Shown: in pieces, positions 52,207 to 64,000 of the stretch
How the letters are laid out: each line of letters starts with the position of its first letter
How positions within the stretch are numbered: the stretch's first letter is position 1
Source: Candidatus Poseidoniaceae archaeon
Lineage (GTDB): Archaea > Thermoplasmatota > Poseidoniia > Poseidoniales > Poseidoniaceae
Assembly (NCBI GenBank): GCA_943788655.1
Contig: CALSRB010000005.1
Location: 258,502-322,501, forward strand
Reading direction: 5' to 3'
DNA length: 64,000 bases
Made by a program: the position numbers and the translations under genes
The notes under the pieces: model-generated
What the model was told of the DNA's origin: nothing
What the model saw: the letters and a program-made list of their open reading frames with translations, nothing else
Database searches by the model: none

Positions 52207-52941
52207 TCACCACCCATCGACAACCCTCCTCCACTGAGGTGGAAGTTCATCCTCGACGTATTCACCTTCATCCAACGAAACGACGGTCAGTTCAAGCCTG
52301 TGAATGGGCCTTGGTGCGTCGAATCCAAGTTCGTCATAGTACGCCTCCACCGCGGCCATGACTTCTGTTAATTGGGCAGTTCCATGCGCCACTGTGATGA
52401 CTTCCCTGCAATCAAACGACTTCGAGGTGTGCACTGTGATGCCAAACGCTTGAGCCTTTGAATGCTGAATCAAATGCTTCGCTAAGTGAGGTGTGGCCGA
52501 TGATCCCGACCATTTCAGGCCAACCATGGGGTTTGACATCCACGATTCTTTTGTTTGCAGTACGGTGGTTTGATGCTTCCACCACGGGCATCTTCCAACC
52601 ACCTGTTGCTGCAGTGCATGCCTGACGGCCAGCGCTGAATGCTTGGAGTGCAAGGAAGGCGCAAGACTGATGAGATCCCCGTACACAATGTTCAGATGGA
52701 AATGCTCGTTCTTGAGCCTGTAGGACCTCTTTTTGATTTGTTCAGGCAAGCACTTTGGATGATCAACAAGCCACTGGAGGTAGGCAAGGTAGGCCTTGGC
52801 CGGCCATGCAAACCTCGCAGGAACTGGCGTTTTGAACACCATTCCATGCTCTTCTCCATCCATGTAGACCGTTGACCATGTGTCGTGCCAGTTCTCCCAT
52901 GTGATGGCGTTTGGATGGATCGGTTTCTTCCTGTTCTTCAT
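52207..52941 (-). CDS. hypothetical protein (244 aa), possibly part of the degraded region
   Basis: ORF from the track; no recognised motifs. Its 5' end overlaps the 3' end of the upstream frameshifted ORF. Confidence 0.3.
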   Translation of the reverse strand: MKNRKKPIHPNAITWENWHDTWSTVYMDGEEHGMVFKTPVPARFAWPAKAYLAYLQWLVDHPKCLPEQIKKRSYRLKNEHFHLNIVYGDLISLAPSLHSKHSALAVRHALQQQVVGRCPWWKHQTTVLQTKESWMSNPMVGLKWSGSSATPHLAKHLIQHSKAQAFGITVHTSKSFDCREVITVAHGTAQLTEVMAAVEAYYDELGFDAPRPIHRLELTVVSLDEGEYVEDELPPQWRRVVDGW

Positions 52942-54532
52942 CCAACATTTTCTGCACTTGAGATGGCATCAGCGCCATTTCCAGTATTGTGTTCCAAAAC
53001 CATGGTTTCATGGCTTCAAACCAATCAACTCCGCCCCATTCTCCATCCGCATGATGGTGAACTTTGAACACCGTTGCACTGTATGTTTGCATTTCATGAT
53101 TGGCGTTTTCTCCAAGCCATTCAATGGTGCAGACCTCACTCATCGATGTTGACTCGGTGAGAGGAAATTCTCCACCTGGATGATTGTACCAGCATACGCC
53201 AGATTCGTCGGTTGGCACGTGCTTGTGATCCAAAATAACCAGCCCTCCATCCCTTATGTTGTGAGCAAACTGGGCCATCATCTCTGGAAAGGCATTGTTC
53301 CTATTCTCAACAAACTCGTCAAGCCACGTCAACCAGTCAACATAGAGGACATCAATGGGTGGCGAGTTGGACAGAAAATCGTAGGCCTCCCTCATGACAT
53401 GCAGTTGCCAGTGCGGTGTGGCGAGTGAGGTTTTCCTGAACACTGGCCAGCCTTCAGAGGAGTCATGCAGCCTCTGATAGATGGCATGGTTGATGACATC
53501 TGCGTGGTATGGCCATTCATCAGGAACACACAACATCCCGACATCGACCAAGACCTGCAAAAACGGATGGCCTGCATCTTCAAACAAACTCATGCTCGCA
53601 TGGTAGTGGCTCGCTGCTGCTGGGTGAGCCACCACAAGGGGTCTGTCTTCATCAATTTCAATGGGCAAACCAATGCCCATGCCATTGGCTTCACCATAGG
53701 TGACGCAGCTTCCAAACCCGTTAATTGGCAGCTTCCTTGTCATGCCTTGACCCATCAAACACACCTCGGATGCCCAAGTGGCACAACCCTGAAGATTCTC
53801 TTGGTTTGCCTTTCCAGCCTTTCGTATTGATTGGCCAGAACCACACCGCCCGAGCCACTGTGTTTTGCAGTGTCGTAGATGGTGTCGTTGTGCATGGTGA
53901 CAATATGGGCCGTGCACAGCTTGCCATTTGCATCTGGATCGCTTGGTGGGTTGACCGAGTAAAAGCACAAGAAAAACAGGTCGTTGAGTTTGACCAGTTC
54001 GTCGATGTAATGCTCAATTCTCCTCACATCGTGGTTGCAGTACGCCAATTGCATGCCGTATGGTTTGAGGGCATTCGACCAAGAGTGCGGTGACTGTGAA
54101 TTGGTGATTGTCTTGAAATCATCAGGGCTCCACATTTGCTCCCGTTGTTCTTGCAATCATAGCCAACGTAGTCGCCACACAAGAGGGCCCAATCTGCTTG
54201 GTCATGATTCGATCGCCATAAGGTCAGAGAAGTATGGACCTTCAAACTCATCCGCCAATGGGCGGATCCCACAGTGGGGCGTTTGCGTTTGGTGTCCATA
54301 CCAGTCACAACCACTCCGTGGAAAATTTCTCATCATAGGAGGGATGCTCGTCCTCTGACATCACAAGTGGTGTTGCCGTTTCACAACCAAGGCATGTGCA
54401 GTCATCATTTCCCATTCTTTCATGGCTTGTGATTCCTCCATCACCGCAGTCGTGAGTTCCATTTCTCTGCTTCATGTAGGCGATAGCAAGCATCGCCATG
54501 GTCATGTCGGTGTAGTGTTGCAGTTTTTTCAT
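52763..54532 (-). pseudogene. calcineurin-like metallophosphoesterase-related gene broken into four or more overlapping frames
   Basis: Consecutive same-strand ORFs 54305..54532, 54024..54314, 53755..54156 and 52763..53968 overlap end-to-start in frames 1, 2, 0 and 1. The fragments carry phosphoesterase-like motifs in the expected order: LLCGDYVGYD (motif II GDxVDRG-like), YCNHDV (GNHE-like), LVILDHKHV and VHHH (GH/GHxH-like). Confidence 0.4.
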
Positions 54533-54557
54533 TCCGTTCTTCTTTTGTCATCTTTTT

Positions 54558-55362
54558 TCACCTCATAGGTATTCTCTGTCTTGATGTGGCCTTCCTGATG
54601 GCCATTCTTCTTCCACTTCTTTGATGTATTCGATTTGCGCTCATATCATGCTCGAAGCCCATTTTCCAAATGTGCGTGTCTTCAATGCACAAGATGGAGC
54701 AACGAAAGCATCGCAAGTGGGAAGCTTTGCCCTTGCTTTTTGTTCGATGCAAAAGTCGACTTCTGATGGCTTGGACCGTTGGTTTGCCACCGTATTCGGG
54801 CACGTGCTCAGGGCAGGTCCAAAACGCTCCAAGCGAATGCTCCACGATGCCTTTCATGAAGAACTGAAGGACATTGGGTTGCCAAGGTGGGCCGAGTTGC
54901 TCCACACCGATTCCAACTGTTTTCTCGTAGTGCTTAACAAGCGAGCCTGGCGTCACCCAGTCTTCGTATTCGATGCACATGTCGAAGCTGAAGGTGTGGC
55001 CATAATCGCCGGTCACCGTGATGGTATATCCGTCGATGGCGATGGCAGGTGAATCGTGCATGAACTGCATAAGTCCAAGCCAGTGTTCCCTTTCGGCAAC
55101 CGCTTCTGGCGGTTCGGTATCAGGTTCTCCAAACGTGAGATAAGTCGTCAAGAGAAGTGAGCACTAGCTCCCATTCAGGCCATGTGTCCCAATCATTACC
55201 TTCTGCGGTGTTGTGTTGATTGTAGGCTGAGAAAATCTGCATGAATTTCTCAGGCAATTGCAGGTTGCCATTGTGGTCGATGAGTTCATCTGGGTCAGTG
55301 TATCCTTGTTGGACAAACCAATTTTCGTGTTTAATGTTTATGTTGTGTATTTTTTTTGTCAT
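54558..55362 (-). pseudogene. hypothetical gene split by a frameshift (fragments 55120..55362 and 54558..55151)
   Basis: Two same-strand ORFs overlap by 32 nt; the downstream part of the second becomes Arg/Lys-rich and non-protein-like. AT-rich surroundings. Confidence 0.3.
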
Positions 55363-55408
55363 TGTATCCTTTCCTTTTTGTGTTCTTTATTTTTTGAGTC
55401 AAAGCAAG

Positions 55409-55480
55409 CAGAGGTACCCGGATTCGAACCGGGGTCCAGGGATCCGAAGCCCCTGATGCTATCCACTACACCATACCTCC
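55409..55480 (-). tRNA. tRNA-Arg (anticodon TCG), CCA not encoded
   Basis: Minus strand reads GGAGGTA-TG-GTGTAGTGGATAGCAT-C-AGGGG-CTTCGGA-TCCCT-GGAC-CCCGG-TTCGAAT-CCGGG-TACCTCT-G. Acceptor stem 7 bp (G1-U71 wobble), T-arm CCCGG/TTCGAAT/CCGGG. Anticodon loop CU-UCG-GA with U33 and G37. Variable loop 4 nt, discriminator G. Confidence 0.6.
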
Positions 55481-55499
55481 ATGCTGCTTTCAAACAGTG

Positions 55500-55830
55500 A
55501 AAACGCGTATGCAATGTTGGAAAAGAGCGATAACGCCCTTTCTGTGGTTGCATAAGCAGCGTTCACTGCCAAACCCAGATCAGTCGCACTAACTGCGATG
55601 ACGGAGGGTCCGCATCAACGAAAATAGAATGTTGAATTTTGGTCCCCTCATACTTGCTCACCTGTTCCGGTACATCTCACCATAAGCGGACCTCCCATAA
55701 AAAACTTTCGCTCAGCACAGCGTTTCTTGAGCCCCTAAGTGTCCGCGCAAGCGCGGAAAGTAACATTATCGCGCCCGCACGTGGGGCATACTTAGGAGGA
55801 AATTGAACCTCCCGAAGTACACGGTTAATT
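55500..55830 (-). ncRNA. candidate structured ncRNA, possibly a reduced RNase P RNA, immediately 5' of the tRNA
   Basis: ~350-nt ORF-free segment. The minus strand contains ...GGGAGGUCCGCUUAUGG... (compare RNase P P4 5' strand GGAAAGUCCGGGCUCCAUAGG) and, ~150 nt downstream, CCACAGAAAGGGCGUUAUCGC (compare bacterial CCACGACAGAACCCGGCUUAUCGG, the ACAGAA P4 3' region). Strong hairpins such as UCCGCG-CUUG-CGCGGA. The order of motifs is consistent, but P4 pairing is imperfect. Confidence 0.3.
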
Positions 55831-55853
55831 GGTCCAAATTCAAAGAATCTAAC

Positions 55854-56514
55854 TCAAGCCGAATCTTCTGGGAACACAATGGTTGCATCTCCCTCAACCC
55901 ACTGCTTGTGCTTCTTCATGCAGGCTTTGAACGCCTCACTTTCGAGGTTCTCCGTTAACCATTCTACCACGTTGGCCCACGGCTGAACATCAAACCAATC
56001 TCGATTGTGATTGGCAAACTGCCGAACAAAGGGGAACAACGCATCGCTCAATGCTTCACTCATCAAGGGTTCAGTGGCCAATCGCCGGTCCAAATCCATC
56101 AGGTAAGCCGAGGCAAGAGTGCGTTGTTCGATTTCGTCAACGTCTTCGTAGCGGTTGGGGTACTTGTATCGGTCAAGATGGAACTTGAATTCATCATCGT
56201 TGCGTGAAATCCAATGCTGTTCTTCTTCTGACAACGTCCAATCCAAGACGTGCTGCATAATCTCGAGGCTCTCTTCAATGACGGTTCCATCGGCCAATAA
56301 CAGAGACCGGGACGGTGCCTTTGGGTGAAACTTCCATCATGTGTTCAGGTCGGTCCCGAAGGATCACTTCCCTCAATTCAACTTGGAACTGGGTGCGGAC
56401 AATGGACATCCGAGCGCGCATGGCGTATGGGCACCTGCGAAACGAATAGAGAATGGGTAGCGCCATCAGATGGCCTCCATCTTCACTCAGGGGGAATTGG
56501 TGGAGCGTAGCCAC
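55854..56514 (-). pseudogene. glutathione S-transferase-family gene interrupted by a single-nucleotide frameshift
   Basis: N-terminal thioredoxin-like part (56275..56514: LYSFRRCPYAMRARMSI ... EVSPKGTVPVSV) and C-terminal part (55854..56297: ADGTVIEESLEIMQHVLDW...) are each GST-like. They join through the canonical ...KGTVPVL-xDG-xVIxESxAI... segment, but in frames offset by 1 nt near 56285-56300. Confidence 0.5.
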
Positions 56515-57547: not shown

Positions 57548-57663
57548 GACTATCGGTAGGTATCTCCCTTTTTGAATCGGTCGTGTCAACGCGTGGGAGA
57601 AAAAGAGGTGAAGGTTTGCCAACCAAGGGTGGATTTCAAAGCAGGTCAACAGTTGAGAGAACC

Positions 57664-58953
57664 ATGGCAGCGGGCACGAAAGGGGCAGAGAAGCGCCTGC
57701 GCGTTCTCGTCGTGCGCGGTTCGTTCGCTCAGCTCGGTGGTGCTGAGCGGGAGTTGTTGCAACTGTTGCGCAACGTCGATCAGCGTTGGGATGTTGGCCT
57801 TGCCACGCTCGAATTCCCGGAGCACGCTCGCTCGTTGATTGAAGGAGCCGACATCACCGTTTACTCACTCGATACGCCCCTTGAATGGCCGAGCGGTGCG
57901 GCTGCCGAGGTGCTTGCTTCTTCCAGTAAGAAAACAGCAAAGGCCTGGAAGGATGTCGACATCCCATTCCAAAACTACGACGCTGTTCACCTTTCTGTGT
58001 GCCCTGGCACCCTCGAGATCTTACCAAGAATCCCTGCAGGACTCCCTGTTCACTATCATTGCCTTGAGCCGCCCCGGTGGTTGTACGAAGATTTGCTCCA
58101 CAGGCGTCTTGATGGAACGCTGAAGCGCCCGTTATGGCTCACGAACCTGATTTTTTCGCTGCAACGACGGCGTGACAAAGCGTATGTTCGCCAGCTTATT
58201 GCACGGCCTCATGCCACCCTTTCCGGCAATTCGCCATGGATTCAACAATGGATTTCCGAACTCTATGGTGTGGCCAGCAGCCCAACAAAAACAAACGGTG
58301 AACCCCCCGAACGAGACGCACACCACCGACTGACTGAAGCCACGCATGTACTGAATGTCATCGACTTGGAGAGTTGGCCACAACACCCAACTGATGATGA
58401 GCAAACGGCCCTTGAGGAGGCACCTGCAACCCCGGCAGAGTATGTTGTCACCGTTGGCCAAGTCATCCATGCCAAAGGAGCGTGGTCGACTGTTGAATCG
58501 CTGAAAGACACCGGGCTTGGCCTTGTTCAAGTCGGCGGAGGCAGGGAAGAGGACAAGCAAGCACTTGTTCAACGGGGCAAGGCAATCGGCGTCGAAGTCG
58601 TCTGCATGCCAAGGCTTTCCCAAGCGGCGCTACGAGCCATTATTCGTGGCAGCCGGGCAATGGTAAGCCATGCTCGCCGCGAACCGTTTGGCCTCACACC
58701 GATTGAAGCGATGGCAATTGGGGTACCTGCATTAATGGTGAATGAGAGTGGTTTTGCCGACACAATGGCTGCTTCAGGCTCTGGTCGCTTGATTGAACGG
58801 AGCGATTTGGGTGCATGGAAAGCAGCCTATCTCGATGCAAAGGATCCTCAGCTGCGCCAGCAATGGGCCGAAGCGGGACGACCCTATGTCGAAGCGAGGT
58901 TTTCGATGCAGGTTCAAATCGAAGCCCTCGAACGATTGCTGGTTGTTCATTAA
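57664..58953 (+). CDS. glycosyltransferase family 4 (GT-B)
   Basis: Track ORF 57583..58953 (GTG); likely ATG 57664 (MAAGTKGAEKRLRVLVVRGSFAQLGGAE). C-terminal EX7E motif REPFGLTPIEAMAIGVPALMVNESG. Confidence 0.75.
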   Translation: MAAGTKGAEKRLRVLVVRGSFAQLGGAERELLQLLRNVDQRWDVGLATLEFPEHARSLIEGADITVYSLDTPLEWPSGAAAEVLASSSKKTAKAWKDVDIPFQNYDAVHLSVCPGTLEILPRIPAGLPVHYHCLEPPRWLYEDLLHRRLDGTLKRPLWLTNLIFSLQRRRDKAYVRQLIARPHATLSGNSPWIQQWISELYGVASSPTKTNGEPPERDAHHRLTEATHVLNVIDLESWPQHPTDDEQTALEEAPATPAEYVVTVGQVIHAKGAWSTVESLKDTGLGLVQVGGGREEDKQALVQRGKAIGVEVVCMPRLSQAALRAIIRGSRAMVSHARREPFGLTPIEAMAIGVPALMVNESGFADTMAASGSGRLIERSDLGAWKAAYLDAKDPQLRQQWAEAGRPYVEARFSMQVQIEALERLLVVH

Positions 58954-58973
58954 GGGTCAGCGGTTTAACCTCC

Positions 58974-59618
58974 GTGAACACTGAGGGGACCCCAAAGAAA
59001 CTGGCCATCATCGGCGCTGGCGGCATCGGAAGCAATCTTGCTGAACTTTTGATTCCTGCCTTGCGAAGGTTGAGCATATCTGCAAACATAACTGTGATGG
59101 ATGATGACGTGGTTGAGTCGGGGAACCTTGGCCATCAACGCTACACTGAGAACGACCTTGGTGTCAAAAAGGTGGATGCATTGGTTTCAAGATTACACAA
59201 CGAATCAAGCACTGTCCAAGTTTCTGCTTGCACAGAAAACCTCCGTGATGCAACCCAACTGGGTGGTTTTGACATGGTTGTTGTCTGCGTCGATCGGCCT
59301 GAACCACGCCGACTTGTGCATGCACTAAATGTTCCATGGGTTGACTTGAGATGCGGTGGTGACGGGTACGTGATGTTGAGTTACCAATCTGAACGTTCCC
59401 TTGTTCGCCACATGACACCAGACCATCAACCGATGAGCTGCCAACACCCCGGCGCCCTCGAAGATGGCAACCTTGAATTTGGATTTGCCAACGCAGCTTC
59501 ACTCGGTGCTCAATGGGCGCTCCAACTGCTCCGGGGCCAACAACCTCCTGTGCAATCGATGGGATCGTTGACCTATGGTGCGTTCAATTTCCCAACTGTC
59601 CCTGAGGTGAACGCATGA
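58974..59618 (+). CDS. minimal ThiF/MoeB/E1-like adenylyltransferase-superfamily protein (~214 aa)
   Basis: Rossmann motif KLAIIGAGGIGSNLA. E1 signature MDDDVVESGNLGHQRY (compare DxDxVExSNLNRQ). Further E1-like blocks GVKKVDALVSRLHNESS and FDMVVVCVDRPEPRRLV. No CxxC zinc motif and no rhodanese domain. Start placed at GTG 58974 because the upstream part of track ORF 58815.. overlaps the GT4 gene. The last codons overlap the next gene's ATG (ATGA). Confidence 0.65.
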   Translation: MNTEGTPKKLAIIGAGGIGSNLAELLIPALRRLSISANITVMDDDVVESGNLGHQRYTENDLGVKKVDALVSRLHNESSTVQVSACTENLRDATQLGGFDMVVVCVDRPEPRRLVHALNVPWVDLRCGGDGYVMLSYQSERSLVRHMTPDHQPMSCQHPGALEDGNLEFGFANAASLGAQWALQLLRGQQPPVQSMGSLTYGAFNFPTVPEVNA

Positions 59619-60169
59619 TTGTCATACCAGATTTGGACCAACTTGAGTTGGACGATGAGGCATGGGGCCGTCTGTGCACCATGGCGGGCGAACGTCGAAT
59701 CGGAGATGAAATCATGGAGATACAAGCCAAAGCAGCGCTTCTTGGCCGATGGGATGTGGTGTATGTTTTGTCTCGGCTTGCTGGTTTGGAAACATCAGTG
59801 CTTATCGATGCTGAAGACAATGTTTCCGTCGATTGGGGAAGCCCCGGTCGAGTCGCCCTGGCCCCTCCTGTTGGATGCGCTGCACCGTTCAAGGTGTGGA
59901 CGCACACACACCCAGGGTTTGAGGCGTATTGGAGTGGAACGGATACCAACAGTTTGGCGATTGCGAGTGGGATTGTTTCCAAGGCGCTGGTGCTTGGGGC
60001 ACCCGGCATTAAACAGAGCCGGAACGCAACGCTCGCTTCAGTTGACGACGAAGTGGATCGGATTTCACCCCAAGAACCGTTGAACTACTGGACGGATGAA
60101 CCTGTGACTCCATGGGCTTCCTTTTATGCAGAATTATCGGAACAAGCGATGGTCGAGGTGAGCGCATGA
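59615..60169 (+). CDS. JAMM/MPN+ family metalloprotease (deubiquitinase-like), 184 aa
   Basis: Complete JAMM motif VWTHTHPGFEAYWSGTDTN (HxHx7Sx2D) with upstream acidic residue (LIDAEDN). ATG overlaps the stop of the E1-like gene; its own stop overlaps the next ATG. Confidence 0.65.
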   Translation: MIVIPDLDQLELDDEAWGRLCTMAGERRIGDEIMEIQAKAALLGRWDVVYVLSRLAGLETSVLIDAEDNVSVDWGSPGRVALAPPVGCAAPFKVWTHTHPGFEAYWSGTDTNSLAIASGIVSKALVLGAPGIKQSRNATLASVDDEVDRISPQEPLNYWTDEPVTPWASFYAELSEQAMVEVSA

Positions 60170-60405
60170 CGTCAATTCGAGCCCCGAAAGATGAAGACGA
60201 GCGGAGAAAGGCGCACCTCGCTGTTGCATTAGGCATGGGTCGCTGTCTTGAGGATGTGGTTGGAGAAATCATCGGTGAAATCCCTGACGAAGCCCTGCTC
60301 ATGGCCATTCGAAATAGAATTCAATTTGCACAAGAAGCAAAGGAAACACTCGACTTTACCGCCCTTGTCAAAGGGATCATTGAACTCCAAAATGAACACG
60401 TATAG
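60166..60405 (+). CDS. small predicted alpha-helical protein (79 aa), function unknown
   Basis: In-frame ATG at 60166 inside track ORF 60112..60405, overlapping the JAMM stop (ATGA). MTSIRAPKDEDERRKAHLAVALGMGRCLEDVVGEI... has no Gly-Gly C-terminus. Confidence 0.45.
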   Translation: MTSIRAPKDEDERRKAHLAVALGMGRCLEDVVGEIIGEIPDEALLMAIRNRIQFAQEAKETLDFTALVKGIIELQNEHV

Positions 60406-60415
60406 AGGTGAACAT

Positions 60416-61357
60416 ATGAAGGTCCCACACAACGAATGCACGGCGTTCAATTGTGTGCTGTGTCATGCTTGGTCGCCTAAAGAATTACGCCGCCAAGACC
60501 TTCATCGTGCTTGGCATAAGAACCTGCAAGCAATGCCGAACGAACAAGCAGAAGAGGTTGGTCAATCCAACAAGATGACATTGGATACGCTGCTCGATCA
60601 AGTTCAGCCTGACCAAGCAGCCGGTGTTTCACTCATCTCATTGCCTGACGAAGCACCGCAACTTATGGCCCATTGCATGGGCTACAATGAGCCAAATTTA
60701 CGCCATCAACTCGAGGCTCGAGCGTTGAAGGACGATGGAGCATTGAGTTTGGAAGATTGGCTTGCGCTGACGCCATACATGATGTTGGATCGTGAAGGCG
60801 AGGTGTCCTACGAACAACGCGGTCAGTTGATGGGGCGCTTTGATTACGAGACAACGAGGTTTTTCCTCGAAATCTGGCATGGTTATTATGGTGTGAACAA
60901 TGCCCTTCGGCTGAGAAACAGCATGGTTCGGATTCATTCTGTCCTTGAGGGCCTACCTTCTACTGAACGCCGTGCATTGACTTTTTTGCACGAAACAGTG
61001 GATGCACAACCTGAGCGAATTGTCGTTGAAGAAGATGGAAGCCTGACCGTTCATGGTGAATCCGGATTGCATTGGCTCATTCTCCCAAGTCATCGAAAGG
61101 TGCCAATTGTCAAGTGCAAAGAAATTGCGAAAACTGTTTGTATTCAACCCCATGGCCATCAATTGGAATGCCCGAGTGGAGATTATCCTGCTCTGTACGC
61201 CATCAGCATGCTCAATGATCTGGCAACATCCCTTCGAGTGCACACGTTATCCGATGGTCTTGTGACCGAGTTGAAAAAGGCACGATCACGCGTTGGTGTA
61301 ACCGGGCTTCCGGCCTTCAATCAACGCAGAGAGTCCTTCCAGCGAGTCTTTGGTTGA
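60416..61357 (+). CDS. hypothetical protein with N-terminal and C-terminal Cys/His clusters (313 aa)
   Basis: Track ORF 60248..61357; start placed at ATG 60416, 10 nt after the previous stop (MKVPHNECTAFNCVLCHAW is a C-x4-C-x2-C-H cluster). A second cluster lies near the C-terminus: KCKEIAKTVCIQPHGHQLECPSGDYP. No recognised catalytic motif. The last 72 nt overlap the convergent fadB-like gene. Confidence 0.5.
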   Translation: MKVPHNECTAFNCVLCHAWSPKELRRQDLHRAWHKNLQAMPNEQAEEVGQSNKMTLDTLLDQVQPDQAAGVSLISLPDEAPQLMAHCMGYNEPNLRHQLEARALKDDGALSLEDWLALTPYMMLDREGEVSYEQRGQLMGRFDYETTRFFLEIWHGYYGVNNALRLRNSMVRIHSVLEGLPSTERRALTFLHETVDAQPERIVVEEDGSLTVHGESGLHWLILPSHRKVPIVKCKEIAKTVCIQPHGHQLECPSGDYPALYAISMLNDLATSLRVHTLSDGLVTELKKARSRVGVTGLPAFNQRRESFQRVFG

Positions 61358-63376
61358 GAAAATCTCAGTCAACCGGTCGAGTTCCATTTGCAAACCTGCT
61401 GACAAGTCTGTCTTGGAAGTTGCATCGATCAAGTCGCTTGCCATCTTCAACGCAATTGGGGCTGTTCTGGAGAGGGATTTCATTTGCCGAGCGATGTTCT
61501 TGTCGTCTGCATCAAATCCATCTGGGCAGGTTCCTGCCATGATTGTCGCCATGTTCTCGTCGCTGTAGAACGAAGTGGCGAATGAGGCGACGGCTGAATC
61601 TGGATGCGCTGGTGAACCTGGGTATTTGTTGCTGGGCTTGCCTTGGCTGGCAAGTTCGCTGACACATGCATCCACCGATGCGACATCGACCAAATGGGTT
61701 AACAGTCCCAGATCGAATCCTGTTTGAGCGTTCATGAAATTTCCAGCAAGGACCGACCAGCGAGCTGCTGGGATGCCACAAATTCGTGCAGGCCGTTGAG
61801 TACCGCCCAATCCGGGATAGATACCAATCGAAGTTTCTGGGAAGCGGAATTGTGTGCGACGTGTTCCGATTCGGTAGTCACATGCAAGAGCAAGTTCCAA
61901 ACCGCCACCAAGCGCCAACCCTGTGGTCAGTGCCACCGTTGTCTTTCTTGAAGATTCCAATTTGTTGAGCATGGTGTGGCCATCTGCAGTGAAGGTCACA
62001 ATTTCAGGAATTGAATCAGCACGGATCTTGTCGACAAAGAATTTCACATCCGCTCCAGCCACGAAGGCCTTTCCGGCACCATCGAGAACGATGGTGTGGA
62101 CCGAATCGTCAGCATTCACTGCATCGAGCGCTGAGTTGAGTTGGCCGACCACAGTTTCGTTGAGGGCGTTCATGGCTTCTGGTCGGTTGATGGTAAGGGT
62201 TGCAACGCCATTCTCAATCGAAGTGTCGACGTAGGAGAAGTTCCATGCTTGATTCGAAGTTGCTTGTGCACCGAAGAATTCAGGCACCTTCCATGCTCGT
62301 GCTTCGTCGCTTTGAGCGCTCAATGAGGCGTAGGCTTCAGCCATGCGATGAGCTTCTTGAATTCCAACTCGGTTCATCATTTCAAATGGACCTCGTGCCC
62401 ATCGCAGACCAACCTTAGCGCCTCGATCAACATCTTCCATCGAGCAAACTCCTTCTTCGACGATTTGTGCAGCCACGCCAAACACAACACCGTACAGTCG
62501 TTCCGCAATGGTCGTGTATTGTTCAGATGAATAGGCATCATCACCTGCAACATCCCAATGAGCATTGGCTTCAATCAAATCACGCAAGTTTTGAGCACCA
62601 ACATAGCGGGGGGTGTGCAATTGTTCGGCAAGGTAATCCGTTGAATGAAGGGCAATCGGTGGGCCAGTCAAGTTCATCAGTCCAAATGGACCAAGTCCAA
62701 TGCGGAATGCTTTGCAAGCCGCTGCATCGATCTGCGCTGCTGTTGCAACGCCCTCTTCGAGGAGCAAGCATGCTTCGTTGAGCCAAGGCACAAAGAAGCG
62801 GTTGACGACGAAACCTGGTCGGTCACCACAAACGATGACCACCTTTCCGAGCATCTTGCAGTACTGAACGACCTTTTCAATCGTTTCAGGACTTGATGAT
62901 GCCGCTGGTATAACTTCGACCAATCGGTTCTTGGCTGGGTGGTAAAAGAAGTGCAGACCAACGAATCGATCAGGTCGGCCTGTTGCTTCAGCAAGCGCAT
63001 TAACTGAAAGTGAAGAAGTGTTTGAGGCAAGAATCGTATCTGGTCCACACGCTGCATCGAGTGTGGTGAACACGGCGGTTTTTACATCGAAGTCTTCGAA
63101 CACAGCCTCAATGACAAGATCGGTGTTCGCAGCGGTGTTTTCAACACCGACAACCCCAGTGATGCGCCCTTGGATGGCCTCCACTTGAGCAGGGGAGAAA
63201 ATTCGTCGCTCCACTGCTTCGGAGAGGAAATCACTGATGATGCCTTGACCACGGTCAACCCATTGTTGCTCTCGGTCCACCATTTGAACGTCGAATTCTT
63301 CCTGAGCTGTCTTCTGTGCGATTCCGGAACCCATGTTCCCCGCACCAACAATTGCCACTCGCTGAATAGGTTGCAT
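61286..63376 (-). CDS. fused 3-hydroxyacyl-CoA dehydrogenase (N-terminal) / enoyl-CoA hydratase (C-terminal) beta-oxidation enzyme
   Basis: Track ORF 61286..63430; likely start ATG 63376 (MQPIQRVAIVGAGNMGSGIAQK, the HCDH Rossmann motif). C-terminal crotonase region TTGLALGGGLELALACDYRIG. The HCDH-then-ECH order is the reverse of bacterial FadB. Confidence 0.8.
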   Translation of the reverse strand: MQPIQRVAIVGAGNMGSGIAQKTAQEEFDVQMVDREQQWVDRGQGIISDFLSEAVERRIFSPAQVEAIQGRITGVVGVENTAANTDLVIEAVFEDFDVKTAVFTTLDAACGPDTILASNTSSLSVNALAEATGRPDRFVGLHFFYHPAKNRLVEVIPAASSSPETIEKVVQYCKMLGKVVIVCGDRPGFVVNRFFVPWLNEACLLLEEGVATAAQIDAAACKAFRIGLGPFGLMNLTGPPIALHSTDYLAEQLHTPRYVGAQNLRDLIEANAHWDVAGDDAYSSEQYTTIAERLYGVVFGVAAQIVEEGVCSMEDVDRGAKVGLRWARGPFEMMNRVGIQEAHRMAEAYASLSAQSDEARAWKVPEFFGAQATSNQAWNFSYVDTSIENGVATLTINRPEAMNALNETVVGQLNSALDAVNADDSVHTIVLDGAGKAFVAGADVKFFVDKIRADSIPEIVTFTADGHTMLNKLESSRKTTVALTTGLALGGGLELALACDYRIGTRRTQFRFPETSIGIYPGLGGTQRPARICGIPAARWSVLAGNFMNAQTGFDLGLLTHLVDVASVDACVSELASQGKPSNKYPGSPAHPDSAVASFATSFYSDENMATIMAGTCPDGFDADDKNIARQMKSLSRTAPIALKMASDLIDATSKTDLSAGLQMELDRLTEIFSTKDSLEGLSALIEGRKPGYTNA

Positions 63377-63426
63377 GGCTTTGCGAATGGAACTTCGCTC
63401 ATGAACAATGCGGCCCTGCGTTTCCC

Positions 63427-64000
63427 TCAAAAGAGGCTGTTGTAAGCATCGCTTGTTCGTTGATTGTAGACGTTCATGTCAAACGAATGAGCGTGGGCAA
63501 CAAGCGCTTGGTCAGCATCTGGCCATCGATGTTTTTCGTCCGAAGAAGTGCGCTGCTTCCACCCTTGATGGACATCAAGCAGCGCAGCCCGCCATGACAC
63601 GACATCGTCTGCTGGCAAACAGGAGCCTTCTGGCATCAATTCATTATGCGAAGCTTCGTTCGAACAGAGCACTCGCGTTCCTGTCGCCATTGCTTCGAGT
63701 GGAGGGTATCCAAAGCCTTCACTGATGCTTGGGAACAGCAGTGCTTCGCTTGCAAATCGCATGTCCATGAGAGCGGTGTCCGACAAATCGCCGCCGTGAG
63801 CGGTGAAGTGTGGAATGGAATGTGCGGCTGCGAGTTCGACAATCGATGGTGCACCAGTGGGTGATTTGGGATCTCCAACATGATGAACGTGGAGGTCTTG
63901 CTTTACTTCTGCATCGAGGCCGCCAAGCACATTGAACAAGAAATCCATTCGTTTTCTCGGGTCATGGCTTCCGACAATCAAGAGGTGGCAGGCCCGCCCC
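63427..64000 (-). CDS. glycosyltransferase family 4, C-terminal part (gene continues beyond window end)
   Basis: Frame open to the window edge. GT4 C-terminal motif FPSISEGFGYPPLEAMATGTRVLCSNEAS (EX7E). Stop at 63427. Confidence 0.65.
   Translation of the reverse strand, partial: GRACHLLIVGSHDPRKRMDFLFNVLGGLDAEVKQDLHVHHVGDPKSPTGAPSIVELAAAHSIPHFTAHGGDLSDTALMDMRFASEALLFPSISEGFGYPPLEAMATGTRVLCSNEASHNELMPEGSCLPADDVVSWRAALLDVHQGWKQRTSSDEKHRWPDADQALVAHAHSFDMNVYNQRTSDAYNSLF

Follow-up and report, generated by a model that had tools for sequence, protein, structure and literature searches.

A candidate ubiquitin-like conjugation cassette of Marine Group II archaea with relatives in magrovirus-like contigs

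Prokaryotic systems built of E1, E2, and JAB proteins have recently turned out to be functional ubiquitination machines in the immunity of bacteria (CBASS, Bil, and Bub). Here, we analyze a 64-kb window, the whole stretch of DNA under study, from an archaeon of the Poseidoniaceae (Marine Group II), and in particular a cassette of four plus-strand genes, g1 to g4, which occupies positions 58974-61357 and encodes an E1-like adenylating enzyme, a JAMM protease, a small helical protein, and a protein with a Cys knuckle and a predicted E2-like domain. The Poseidoniales rank among the most numerous archaea of the surface ocean and are still uncultured. We propose, with a probability of roughly 0.6, that the cassette supplies the core enzymes of a system for the conjugation and deconjugation of a ubiquitin-like protein (Ubl), and that this system is part of a family of its own, found in Marine Group II archaea and magrovirus-like viruses.

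Several described systems bring together comparable parts. In bacteria, operons with Ubl, E1, E2, and JAB genes were described as class 6d (PMC1779556) and later as the Bil anti-phage systems (PMC10557695). They share with the cassette and its relatives the separate E1-like, E2-like, and JAB genes and a Ubl that terminates in Gly-Gly; the E2-like proteins of class 6d are also without the classical HPN histidine, and its fifth component, a 'novel alpha-helical protein' (PMC1779556), recalls g3. However, the Pfam Prok-E2 and Prok_Ub models and the PADLOC models do not match g2-g4, the E1 is here a minimal protein of 214 residues with a Ser-Cys-Gln (SCQ) motif, the E2-like domain lies at the C-terminus of a larger Cys-knuckle protein, and the family is found in archaea and archaeal viruses, with no Ubl at this locus. 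In the case of type II CBASS, with its Cap2 (an E2-E1 fusion) and Cap3 (JAB), the difference is that the E1 and the E2-like domain are here on separate proteins and that the relatives of the cassette use a true Ubl. No CD-NTase or effector gene is found near the cassette, whose neighbors encode GT4 glycosyltransferases, a GDP-mannose dehydratase, and GST-like and FadB-like proteins.

Among archaea, Caldiarchaeum subterraneum and related organisms possess an operon for ubiquitin, E1-l, E2-l, a small RING protein, and Rpn11 (PMC5654768, PMC3082918). The likeness extends to archaeal E1, E2, and JAMM proteins with a Gly-Gly Ubl, the best structural match of the g2 profile being the Rpn11-like protein of that operon (6fjv), and the Ubl profile of the relatives of the cassette matches ubiquitin itself. 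The matches are marginal, however (E 0.026 for the JAMM protein), the E1 is here without the extra UBA-type E1 domains, a RING protein is absent, UQ_con misses the E2-like domain, and neither g3 nor the Cys-knuckle domain has a counterpart there. The SAMP/UbaA/HvJAMM1 system likewise pairs an archaeal E1-like enzyme with a JAMM protease, both acting on beta-grasp modifiers that end in Gly-Gly (PMC4443979, PMC4895103), but g1 scores only 29.6 against the UbaA cut-off of 450, and SAMPylation proceeds without an E2, whereas here there are an E2-like partner, clustered genes, and sharing with viruses. The ParB-related, ThiF-related cassette (PRTRC) of plasmids and conjugative elements resembles the present one in that PRTRC_ThiF is the top model for g1 and in that both are tied to mobile elements; the score of 61.7 is nevertheless far from the cut-off of 144.75, and the PRTRC protein models A-F and ParB do not match g2, g3, or g4.

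Because the defining features that we tested are not found in it, the cassette is no sequence-level member of the 6d/Bil, CBASS, Caldiarchaeum, PRTRC, or SAMP/UbaA systems. By analogy, it may be functionally like the class 6d/Bil operons, Cap2/Cap3, and the Caldiarchaeum ubiquitin operon. Its distinctive set comprises the 214-residue SCQ E1 without a zinc site, the E2-like domain on a Cys-knuckle protein, g3, the Ubl-Ubl-E1 and E1-JAMM fusions of its relatives, and the range over Marine Group II and magrovirus-like contigs.

The proteins of the cassette

The product of g1 matches Pfam ThiF (PF00899) at 1.5e-20 and 73.8 bits (gathering score 28.1), contains the motifs IIGAGGIGS and DDDVVESGNLGHQ, and has what marks the E1-like superfamily, namely a ThiF domain with GxGxxG and the Asp/Asn/Lys/Asp/Arg residues for ATP and Mg. 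Residues G14, G16, G17, D43, D45, N51, K66, D107, R112, and S155-C156-Q157 are invariant in host proteins and in distant relatives reaching down to 30% identity, and the ATP/Mg-binding residues are intact. In the alignments, the strand next to the GDG motif is followed by S155-C156-Q157, and Cys156 is a candidate for the thioester-forming Cys of the crossover loop. There are no zinc CxxC pairs, no rhodanese domain, and no ubiquitin-fold domain in g1, and an exhaustive HMMER search places it within a distinct family of minimal E1 proteins of about 185-230 residues that share the SCQ motif. Besides UbaA, the NCBIfam equivalogs give scores far below their cut-offs (ThiF 59.2 vs 159 and 46.5 vs 275, MoeB 34.2 vs 449, TcdA 16.4 vs 304), and PRTRC_ThiF (6.5e-17) is the top NCBIfam model for most minimal-E1 relatives as well. 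PADLOC models match g1 only through the E1 half of Cap2, and match nothing in g2-g4. Among PDB sequences, g1 matches 9egb/9egc, MccB (E 5e-6), Cap2, Uba1, and Uba4. The closest of these by sequence, 9egb/9egc (E 2.5e-8, residues 12-83), is a 264-residue 'THIF-type NAD/FAD binding fold domain-containing protein' with 7-14 chains in the deposited entries, and a literature search found no paper naming it.

By its motif, the g2 protein is a highly divergent JAMM/MPN+ metalloprotease. Its HxHx7SxxD motif is supplied by HTHPGFEAYWSGTD, and Glu59 is encoded at 59789-59791; E59, H97, H99, S107, and D110 are invariant among 37 host homologues, and the motif is present in all 67 viral ones. All 37 homologues match Pfam Prok-JAB weakly (best E 9e-4), with no other family recurring, and a search of the PDB with the g2 profile returns JAMM proteins only (E 0.026-2), 6fjv being followed by AMSH. 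The initial annotation had read g1 as a minimal ThiF/E1-like enzyme without CxxC pairs or a rhodanese domain and g2 as a JAMM metalloprotease with HxHx7Sx2D, and both readings are borne out. It had also named a grouping of g1 with the housekeeping MoeB and ThiF enzymes as the outcome that would speak against it, and g1 instead falls short of every ThiF, MoeB, and UbaA equivalog cut-off.

In the predicted layout of g4, a Cys knuckle at the N-terminus is followed by a helical middle region, then by a C-terminal E2(UBC)-like domain, and lastly by a tail of low confidence. The family is small (26 clusters), with no match of g4 in Pfam, NCBIfam, PADLOC, or PDB sequences, and its profile, like that of the viral X family described below, finds nothing among PDB sequences and Pfam. 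The two families are related to each other (hhalign, Prob 93-94%, E 8e-8 to 2.5e-7). Of the 56 X proteins from viruses, 52 keep the Cys equivalent to C242 of g4 (GPICIDN), as do all sister cellular homologues (CIH or CIV), which adjoin Ubl-E1 genes. When profiles of the E2-like domain were aligned by hhalign with classical E2 sequences (only P 0.011-0.04), the invariant Cys of both families (CIQP in g4, GPICIDN in viral X) fell over the catalytic Cys of G-x-ICLD in both runs. We consider it likely that the C-terminal domain of g4 has an E2-like fold and, with somewhat less assurance, that C242 has a catalytic role; this is in line with the suggestion in the initial annotation that g4 might be an E2 analogue.

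The same annotation had described g4 as a protein of 313 residues with two Cys-His clusters, which are indeed present as spelled (C8-x4-C13-x2-C16-H17 and C234-x7-C242-x3-H246-x-H248-x3-C252), but their conservation stands only in part. Across 14 orthologues, C8, C13, C16, and C242 alone are invariant and C252 nearly so, while H17, C234, H246, and H248 are not conserved. Because C234, H246, and H248 vary, the C-terminal cluster is not a conserved metal site, and was rejected as such. The protein ends in FQRVFG, within a pattern FQR(V/I)F(G/S) across orthologues. The last 24 codons (61286-61357) run antisense to the part of fadB that encodes its conserved crotonase-type C-terminus (…KDSLEGLSALIEGRKPGYTNA), with this overlap in all g4-bearing loci seen, and therefore the conservation of the tail cannot be used as functional evidence, nor the tail be put forward on that ground as an E1 substrate.

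The g3 protein has a conserved N-terminal motif, VRxPKD(D/E)xE, and homologues in 375 clusters (78-97 residues) whose source labels, where shown, are all Poseidoniales/Euryarchaeota. The predicted model has four helices, the protein being helical to within two residues of its C-terminus, and by this model g3 is neither a beta-grasp protein nor an E2. The initial annotation was right to call it helical and one residue too long in giving it 80 residues; its idea of g3 as a novel carrier is not supported for a carrier of the beta-grasp type, given the helical model. A split version of viral X in the form of g3 plus g4 was considered and rejected, as the hhalign match of g3 with X (E 0.006) is not colinear. 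We propose that g3 is an accessory component of the cellular versions of the system, be it an adaptor, a regulator, or a substrate.

Ubiquitin-like partners in sister and viral loci

The closest relatives of g1 include E1-JAMM fusions (P0286, P0304) and proteins whose N-terminal part, directly before the E1, is made up of a single or a double domain of about 66 residues ending in (L/I)VGG (P0269, P0271, P0283, P0302, and others); in P0280 and P0294 the same N-terminal domain ends in GC. The profile of this Ubl matches mono-ubiquitin along the full length, the Gly-Gly residues coinciding (E 2e-3 to 9e-3). When metagenomes were scanned with the cellular Ubl, sister contigs of 42-60% G+C were recovered in two arrangements, the first with a g4-like gene, a Ubl-Ubl-E1 gene, JAMM, and g3, in that order, and the second with Ubl, E1, and JAMM, sometimes accompanied by a weak g4-like gene. 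The g4-like sister proteins keep the Cys-Ile motif and an N-terminal CxCCG…CxxCRPW knuckle (CYCCGF…CIICRPW or CHCCGH…CELCRPW). Natural fusions, E1-JAMM or Ubl-Ubl-E1, are represented by P0286, P0304, P0269, and P0271 and at L107-L111 and L120; in the Ubl-Ubl-E1 polyproteins each Ubl ends in LVGG, which implies a JAMM-dependent self-processing of the precursor.

Viral relatives were studied in 80 loci (L027-L106) fetched from at least 321 IMG/VR contigs that carry an E1 of this kind. The contigs have about 35% G+C, many of them measure 86-96 kb, and they encode a TFIIB-type zinc-ribbon protein, a Cpn60/TCP1 chaperonin, and an ATP-dependent DNA ligase, a gene content matching that of the published Marine Group II magroviruses (PMC5434244). 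On this gene content alone we infer that they are magrovirus-like viruses. Host and viral E1 proteins are 30-37% identical, and in 67 of the 80 loci the E1 is followed on its own strand by a JAMM gene of the g2 type (E down to 1e-25). X, a conserved protein of about 380-440 residues, is encoded upstream of the viral E1 and shares homology with the E2-like domain of g4 in its C-terminal domain, and 43 loci also have an open reading frame (ORF) of 65-71 residues ending in IVGG plus 0-2 residues, which matches the hidden Markov model (HMM) of the Ubl domain with E values down to 6e-18. The Gly-Gly beta-grasp gene that an operon of the Bil/6d or Caldiarchaeum kind requires is hence found in the sister loci and in these 43, and not at the cassette. 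The viral order is fixed (Ubl, X with its E2-like domain, a TFB-like gene, E1, in some cases a Myb-like gene, and JAMM), and Ubl, X, E1, and JAMM occur all together in 39 loci. Taken by its sequences, the viral module has the look of a complete ubiquitin-like system carried by archaeal viruses. The initial annotation had taken the pairing of E1 with JAMM as the mark of a ubiquitin-like module, which agrees with finding the same families next to, or fused with, a Ubl ending in Gly-Gly in sister and viral loci. In INPHARED phage records there are only distant crAss-like ThiF matches, at about 25-32% identity.

Some further features of the viral loci deserve mention. A small zinc-ribbon ORF stands between Ubl and X (about 400 residues), all co-directional (e.g., L092:3183-7157), and the JAMM gene is usually followed by a GroES-like gene with the chaperonin, or by the ATP-dependent DNA ligase. 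The small ORFs between E1 and JAMM were considered as Ubls and rejected: none ends in Gly-Gly, and they are Myb-like, zinc-ribbon, or other proteins. In 23 loci they contain Myb/SANT-like domains, single or repeated (e.g., L040:6555-7697, L049:6776-7084), and a Myb/SANT-like helix-turn-helix (HTH) domain (W-x2-E-E-x2-L…G-R-(T/S)…A-I-x-x-R-x-x-x-L) is fused N- or C-terminally to related minimal E1 proteins (P0279, P0280, P0284, P0285, P0288, and P0289). These fusions and ORFs suggest a link between the system and DNA-binding proteins, and one may speculate from the proximity of TFB-like and Myb/SANT-like genes that the clients are transcription or chromatin proteins. After the viral JAMM there is also a conserved ORF of about 90-120 residues (…VS(V/K)REIKRIF…QLP…F…RAE…) with an acidic tail containing EFGEWN (L029:6595-6882, L032:8536-8907, and relatives), which has no Pfam match and may be a histone-fold-like or DNA-associated protein.

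Gene layout and conservation in Marine Group II

The features of the locus are collected in Table 1. The g1/g2 and g2/g3 junctions are ATGA overlaps, and g1 is assigned the GTG start rather than the upstream ATG at 58815, because the N-termini of its orthologues read MN/ME…K(K/S)L(A/L)IIGAGGIG. The Shine-Dalgarno-like GAGGTGA motifs, which account for the recurrent EVxA C-termini of g1 and g2, are consistent with one polycistronic, translationally coupled unit. By comparison with an orthologous locus of 91% identity (L008), dN/dS is 0.10 for g1, 0.07 for g2, 0.07 for g3, and 0.10 for g4, that is, all four genes are under purifying selection. Re-reading the sequence reproduced the coordinates and motifs of the four coupled genes as first annotated, together with the start of g4 10 nt after the g3 stop and its 72-nt overlap with the fadB-like gene.

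Table 1 Features of the cassette and its surroundings (positions in the 64-kb window)
Feature	Position	Strand	Description
GT4 glycosyltransferase, upstream	57583-58953	+	ends 20 nt before g1
g1	58974-59618	+	GTG start; 214 residues; minimal E1-like (ThiF-fold) adenylating enzyme
g1 Cys156 codon (TGC), in Ser-Cys-Gln	59439-59441	+	invariant in 18 host orthologues and 12 distant relatives; kept in 79 of 80 viral homologues
g2	59615-60169	+	ATG overlaps g1 stop (ATGA); 184 residues; JAMM/MPN+ metalloprotease, highly divergent
g2 motif H97-x-H99-x7-S107-x2-D110	59903-59944	+	JAMM zinc/catalytic motif, read in the sequence; invariant in alignment
g3	60166-60405	+	ATGA overlap with g2 stop; 79 residues; predicted four-helix protein
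g4	60416-61357	+	start 10 nt past g3 stop; 313 residues; Cys knuckle and predicted E2(UBC)-like domain
g4 Cys knuckle C8-x4-C13-x2-C16 (…NCVLCHAW)	60437-60463	+	N-terminal; C8, C13, C16, and W19 invariant
g4 E2/UBC-like domain, residues ~182-290	60959-61285	+	predicted: helix, 4-5 beta strands, loop with invariant Cys, helix
g4 Cys242 codon (TGT), in (T/S)xCIQ	61139-61141	+	invariant in g4 family; candidate E2-type catalytic Cys
GAGGTGA Shine-Dalgarno-like motifs	59604-59610, 60155-60161, 60405-60411	+	each 4 nt before the start of g2, g3, and g4, respectively
fadB-like gene	61286-63430	-	convergent; 72-nt overlap with the 3' end of g4
GT4 glycosyltransferase, second	63427-63981	-	beyond fadB; the pair of GT4 genes brackets the cassette-fadB block

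The order g1-g2-g3-g4 was found again in at least 18 independent loci from metagenomes or metagenome-assembled genomes (MAGs), and when species-representative genomes were scanned with the g4 alignment, all matches were in Poseidoniales/Poseidoniaceae MAGs, including CM001443.1 at 91% identity. A lack of co-occurrence of the cassette in other genomes, which had been named beforehand as contrary to a functional module, is therefore not what is seen. All longer loci share a neighborhood of GST-like, GDP-mannose dehydratase, and GT4 genes, g1-g4, the convergent fadB and GT4 genes, and genes for HxlR, an HVO_0163-type HTH protein, Dus, ribosomal protein S2, and a Cas4-like protein. The cassette is thus a fixed chromosomal locus across the order, and not a mobile island. 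It diverges much faster than its surroundings, with proteins 52-75% identical to those of locus L001 as against 88% for fadB. More distant Marine Group II lineages retain g1-g2-g3 at the same site beside fadB, without g4, and therefore the constant host core is E1-JAMM-g3, with g4 being lineage-specific. The view of the four genes as a single unit, put forward at the outset, accordingly agrees with the order kept in those loci but not with the lineages in which g4 is absent beside g1-g2-g3.

The position of the cassette just downstream of a GT4 gene was also correctly recorded, yet GT4 is no constant neighbor elsewhere: a Tyw1-like or MFS gene takes its place in other Marine Group II lineages, so that the edge of the locus is variable there, and GT4 was ruled out as a part of the unit. 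Both flanking GT4 proteins match Pfam GT4-conflict (PF20706) partially or weakly, one of the matches spanning only 65 of 385 profile positions. Further upstream, a tRNA-Arg(TCG) gene (55408-55480, minus strand) adjoins the stretch of lowest G+C in the window (54000-56000, 48.5%); the ORFs at 52763-53968 and 54558-55151, both on the minus strand, have no match among PDB structures, and this part of the window, located upstream of the glycosylation genes, may be a small segment that is integrated or variable.

A proposed conjugation relay and its alternatives

The system that we propose would work on a Ubl of about 66 residues with a terminal (I/L)VGG; such a Ubl often has 1-2 further residues or is a tandem fusion with the E1. 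The JAMM protease g2 would trim the precursor to expose the Gly-Gly, and g1 would adenylate the C-terminus of the Ubl with ATP and Mg, probably followed by thioester formation on Cys156. The Ubl would then be transferred to Cys242 in the E2-like domain of g4, whose Cys knuckle and helical region probably select the targets, and would be attached to these proteins, to be removed again by g2, with g3 serving as a constant small helical accessory, whether adaptor, regulator, or substrate, of the cellular versions.

A number of observations weigh against this proposal. The six-frame scan of the 64-kb window with the Ubl HMM gave a best E value of 0.4, which is not significant, and the same HMM found no Ubl in any fadB-syntenic Marine Group II locus. 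The E2 assignment of g4 rests on a predicted model with a pLDDT of 49, for which Foldseek found no match; the Pfam UQ_con and Prok-E2_A-E models match neither g4 (E up to 1) nor 38 X proteins (E up to 0.1), and the HPN motif is absent upstream of C242. The score of g2 alone with Prok-JAB is 14.2 bits, under the gathering score of 25. In some Marine Group II lineages g4 is not adjacent to E1-JAMM-g3, and the 340-residue gene in the g4 position of locus L023, examined as a possible homologue, proved unrelated by HMM.

As for the modifier, the initial annotation had seen no Gly-Gly beta-grasp protein at the locus, and neither the search for ORFs ending in Gly-Gly, which returned a single, spurious antisense ORF in the window, nor the Ubl HMM gives a true match. 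All components of the cassette recur elsewhere with a Ubl and none is present here, and therefore the cassette would be a Ubl-less member of the family; since neither the cassette nor the window contains one, the modifier must come in trans, an encoding elsewhere being among the options that the initial annotation had listed. The E 0.4 match mentioned above (58793-58981, plus strand, third frame) overlaps the 3' end of the GT4 gene, stops 10 nt past the start of g1, and sits where an E1-fused Ubl would be (…NDCWLFIKGQ… against …NSWVFADGQ…); it could be a chance match or a decayed remnant.

The lack of a Ubl at the locus is what would be expected if the cassette worked as Cap2 and Cap3 do with CD-NTase, the E1 activating the C-terminus of g3 (Ala/Val) or the tail of g4 for conjugation to targets, from which the JAMM protease would free it. 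In this regard, no partner of E1-JAMM is more constant in host lineages than g3, the g4 tail, of low confidence in the model and so probably disordered, has a small last residue (Gly or Ser), and the PADLOC matches of g1 are confined to Cap2 E1 domains. However, sister systems combine homologues of g3 and g4 with a genuine Gly-Gly Ubl fused to the E1, and because this Ubl is present alongside them, g3 and g4 are not modifier substitutes there. Moreover, g3, helical almost to its end in the predicted model, would have no flexible tail, the antisense fadB C-terminus confounds the conservation seen in the g4 tail, and the C-terminal tails of viral X proteins are not conserved; we regard this explanation as unlikely. 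A conflict between virus and host, in which Ubl-less host enzymes would misdirect, consume, or strip the Ubl of magroviruses, or in which the viral set would hijack host targets, agrees with the occurrence of the same three enzyme families plus a Ubl in the magrovirus-like contigs, with the host loci devoid of a Ubl, and with the divergence of the cassette being faster than that of fadB. It seems quite unlikely to us, given that the cassette has a fixed chromosomal position, unlike a variable defense island, and is under strong purifying selection, that host and viral E1 proteins, with their low identity, may not cross-react, and that the viral identity of the contigs is deduced from their gene content only.

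Two further explanations would take the cassette away from ubiquitin-like conjugation. The generic ThiF fold of g1, its weak NCBIfam matches to ThiF and MoeB, and the existence of JAMM-processed sulfur carriers, such as CysO/Mec+ and DRJAMM (PMC8832034), would allow a housekeeping role, with g1 activating ThiS, MoaD, or SAMP for thiamine, molybdopterin, or tRNA thiolation and g2 processing MoaD. Against this, the ThiF, MoeB, and UbaA equivalog scores (59 vs 159, 34 vs 449, and 30 vs 450) are far under the cut-offs, there is no rhodanese domain or CxxC pair and, in the window and the syntenic loci, no linked ThiS/MoaD carrier gene or cofactor-biosynthesis neighbor, sulfur transfer has no place for an E2-like partner, and the closest relatives of g1 form a minimal-E1 family abundant in viruses and fused to ubiquitin-like and JAMM domains. 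This role is already largely refuted, and its remaining probability is of the slightest. Hardly better placed is a non-protein or peptide substrate, with g1 acting like MccB/PaaA or TcdA, perhaps in connection with the GT4 and GDP-mannose dehydratase genes, and g2-g4 as unrelated accessories: MccB is among the best PDB matches of g1, and GT4 lies on the same strand close upstream, but GT4 is not a conserved neighbor, the E1-JAMM pairing is kept in hosts and viruses and also as a fusion protein, and the E1 is fused to Ubl domains ending in Gly-Gly as well. We consider such a substrate very improbable, and favor the conjugation and deconjugation of a Ubl.

A literature search found no paper tying Marine Group II or the magroviruses to ThiF, JAB, or ubiquitin, nor a description of a complete Ubl conjugation system of an archaeal virus; a ubiquitin-like tagging system common to Marine Group II archaea and their viruses has apparently been undescribed so far. 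The Poseidoniales carry a conserved and selected E1/JAMM/E2-like system of a separate sequence family, and archaeal E1/E2/JAB systems bear on the origin of eukaryotic ubiquitin signaling. If confirmed, the system would provide a new minimal E1, a new E2-like architecture, and likely the first complete Ubl system in archaeal viruses, along with a set that is tractable in vitro, the proteins being short, the catalytic residues clear, and Ubl-E1 and E1-JAMM fusions available from nature. An archaeal virus would then encode a complete Ubl-E2-E1-JAMM set beside its own TFB-like transcription factor. It may even be, though we hold this to be rather unlikely, that Marine Group II archaea and magroviruses share, and perhaps compete over, a private Ubl currency, with the host cassette acting on the viral Ubl or the viral enzymes on host targets; were this so, one of the surface ocean's most abundant pairs of virus and host would have Ubl conjugation as a battleground.

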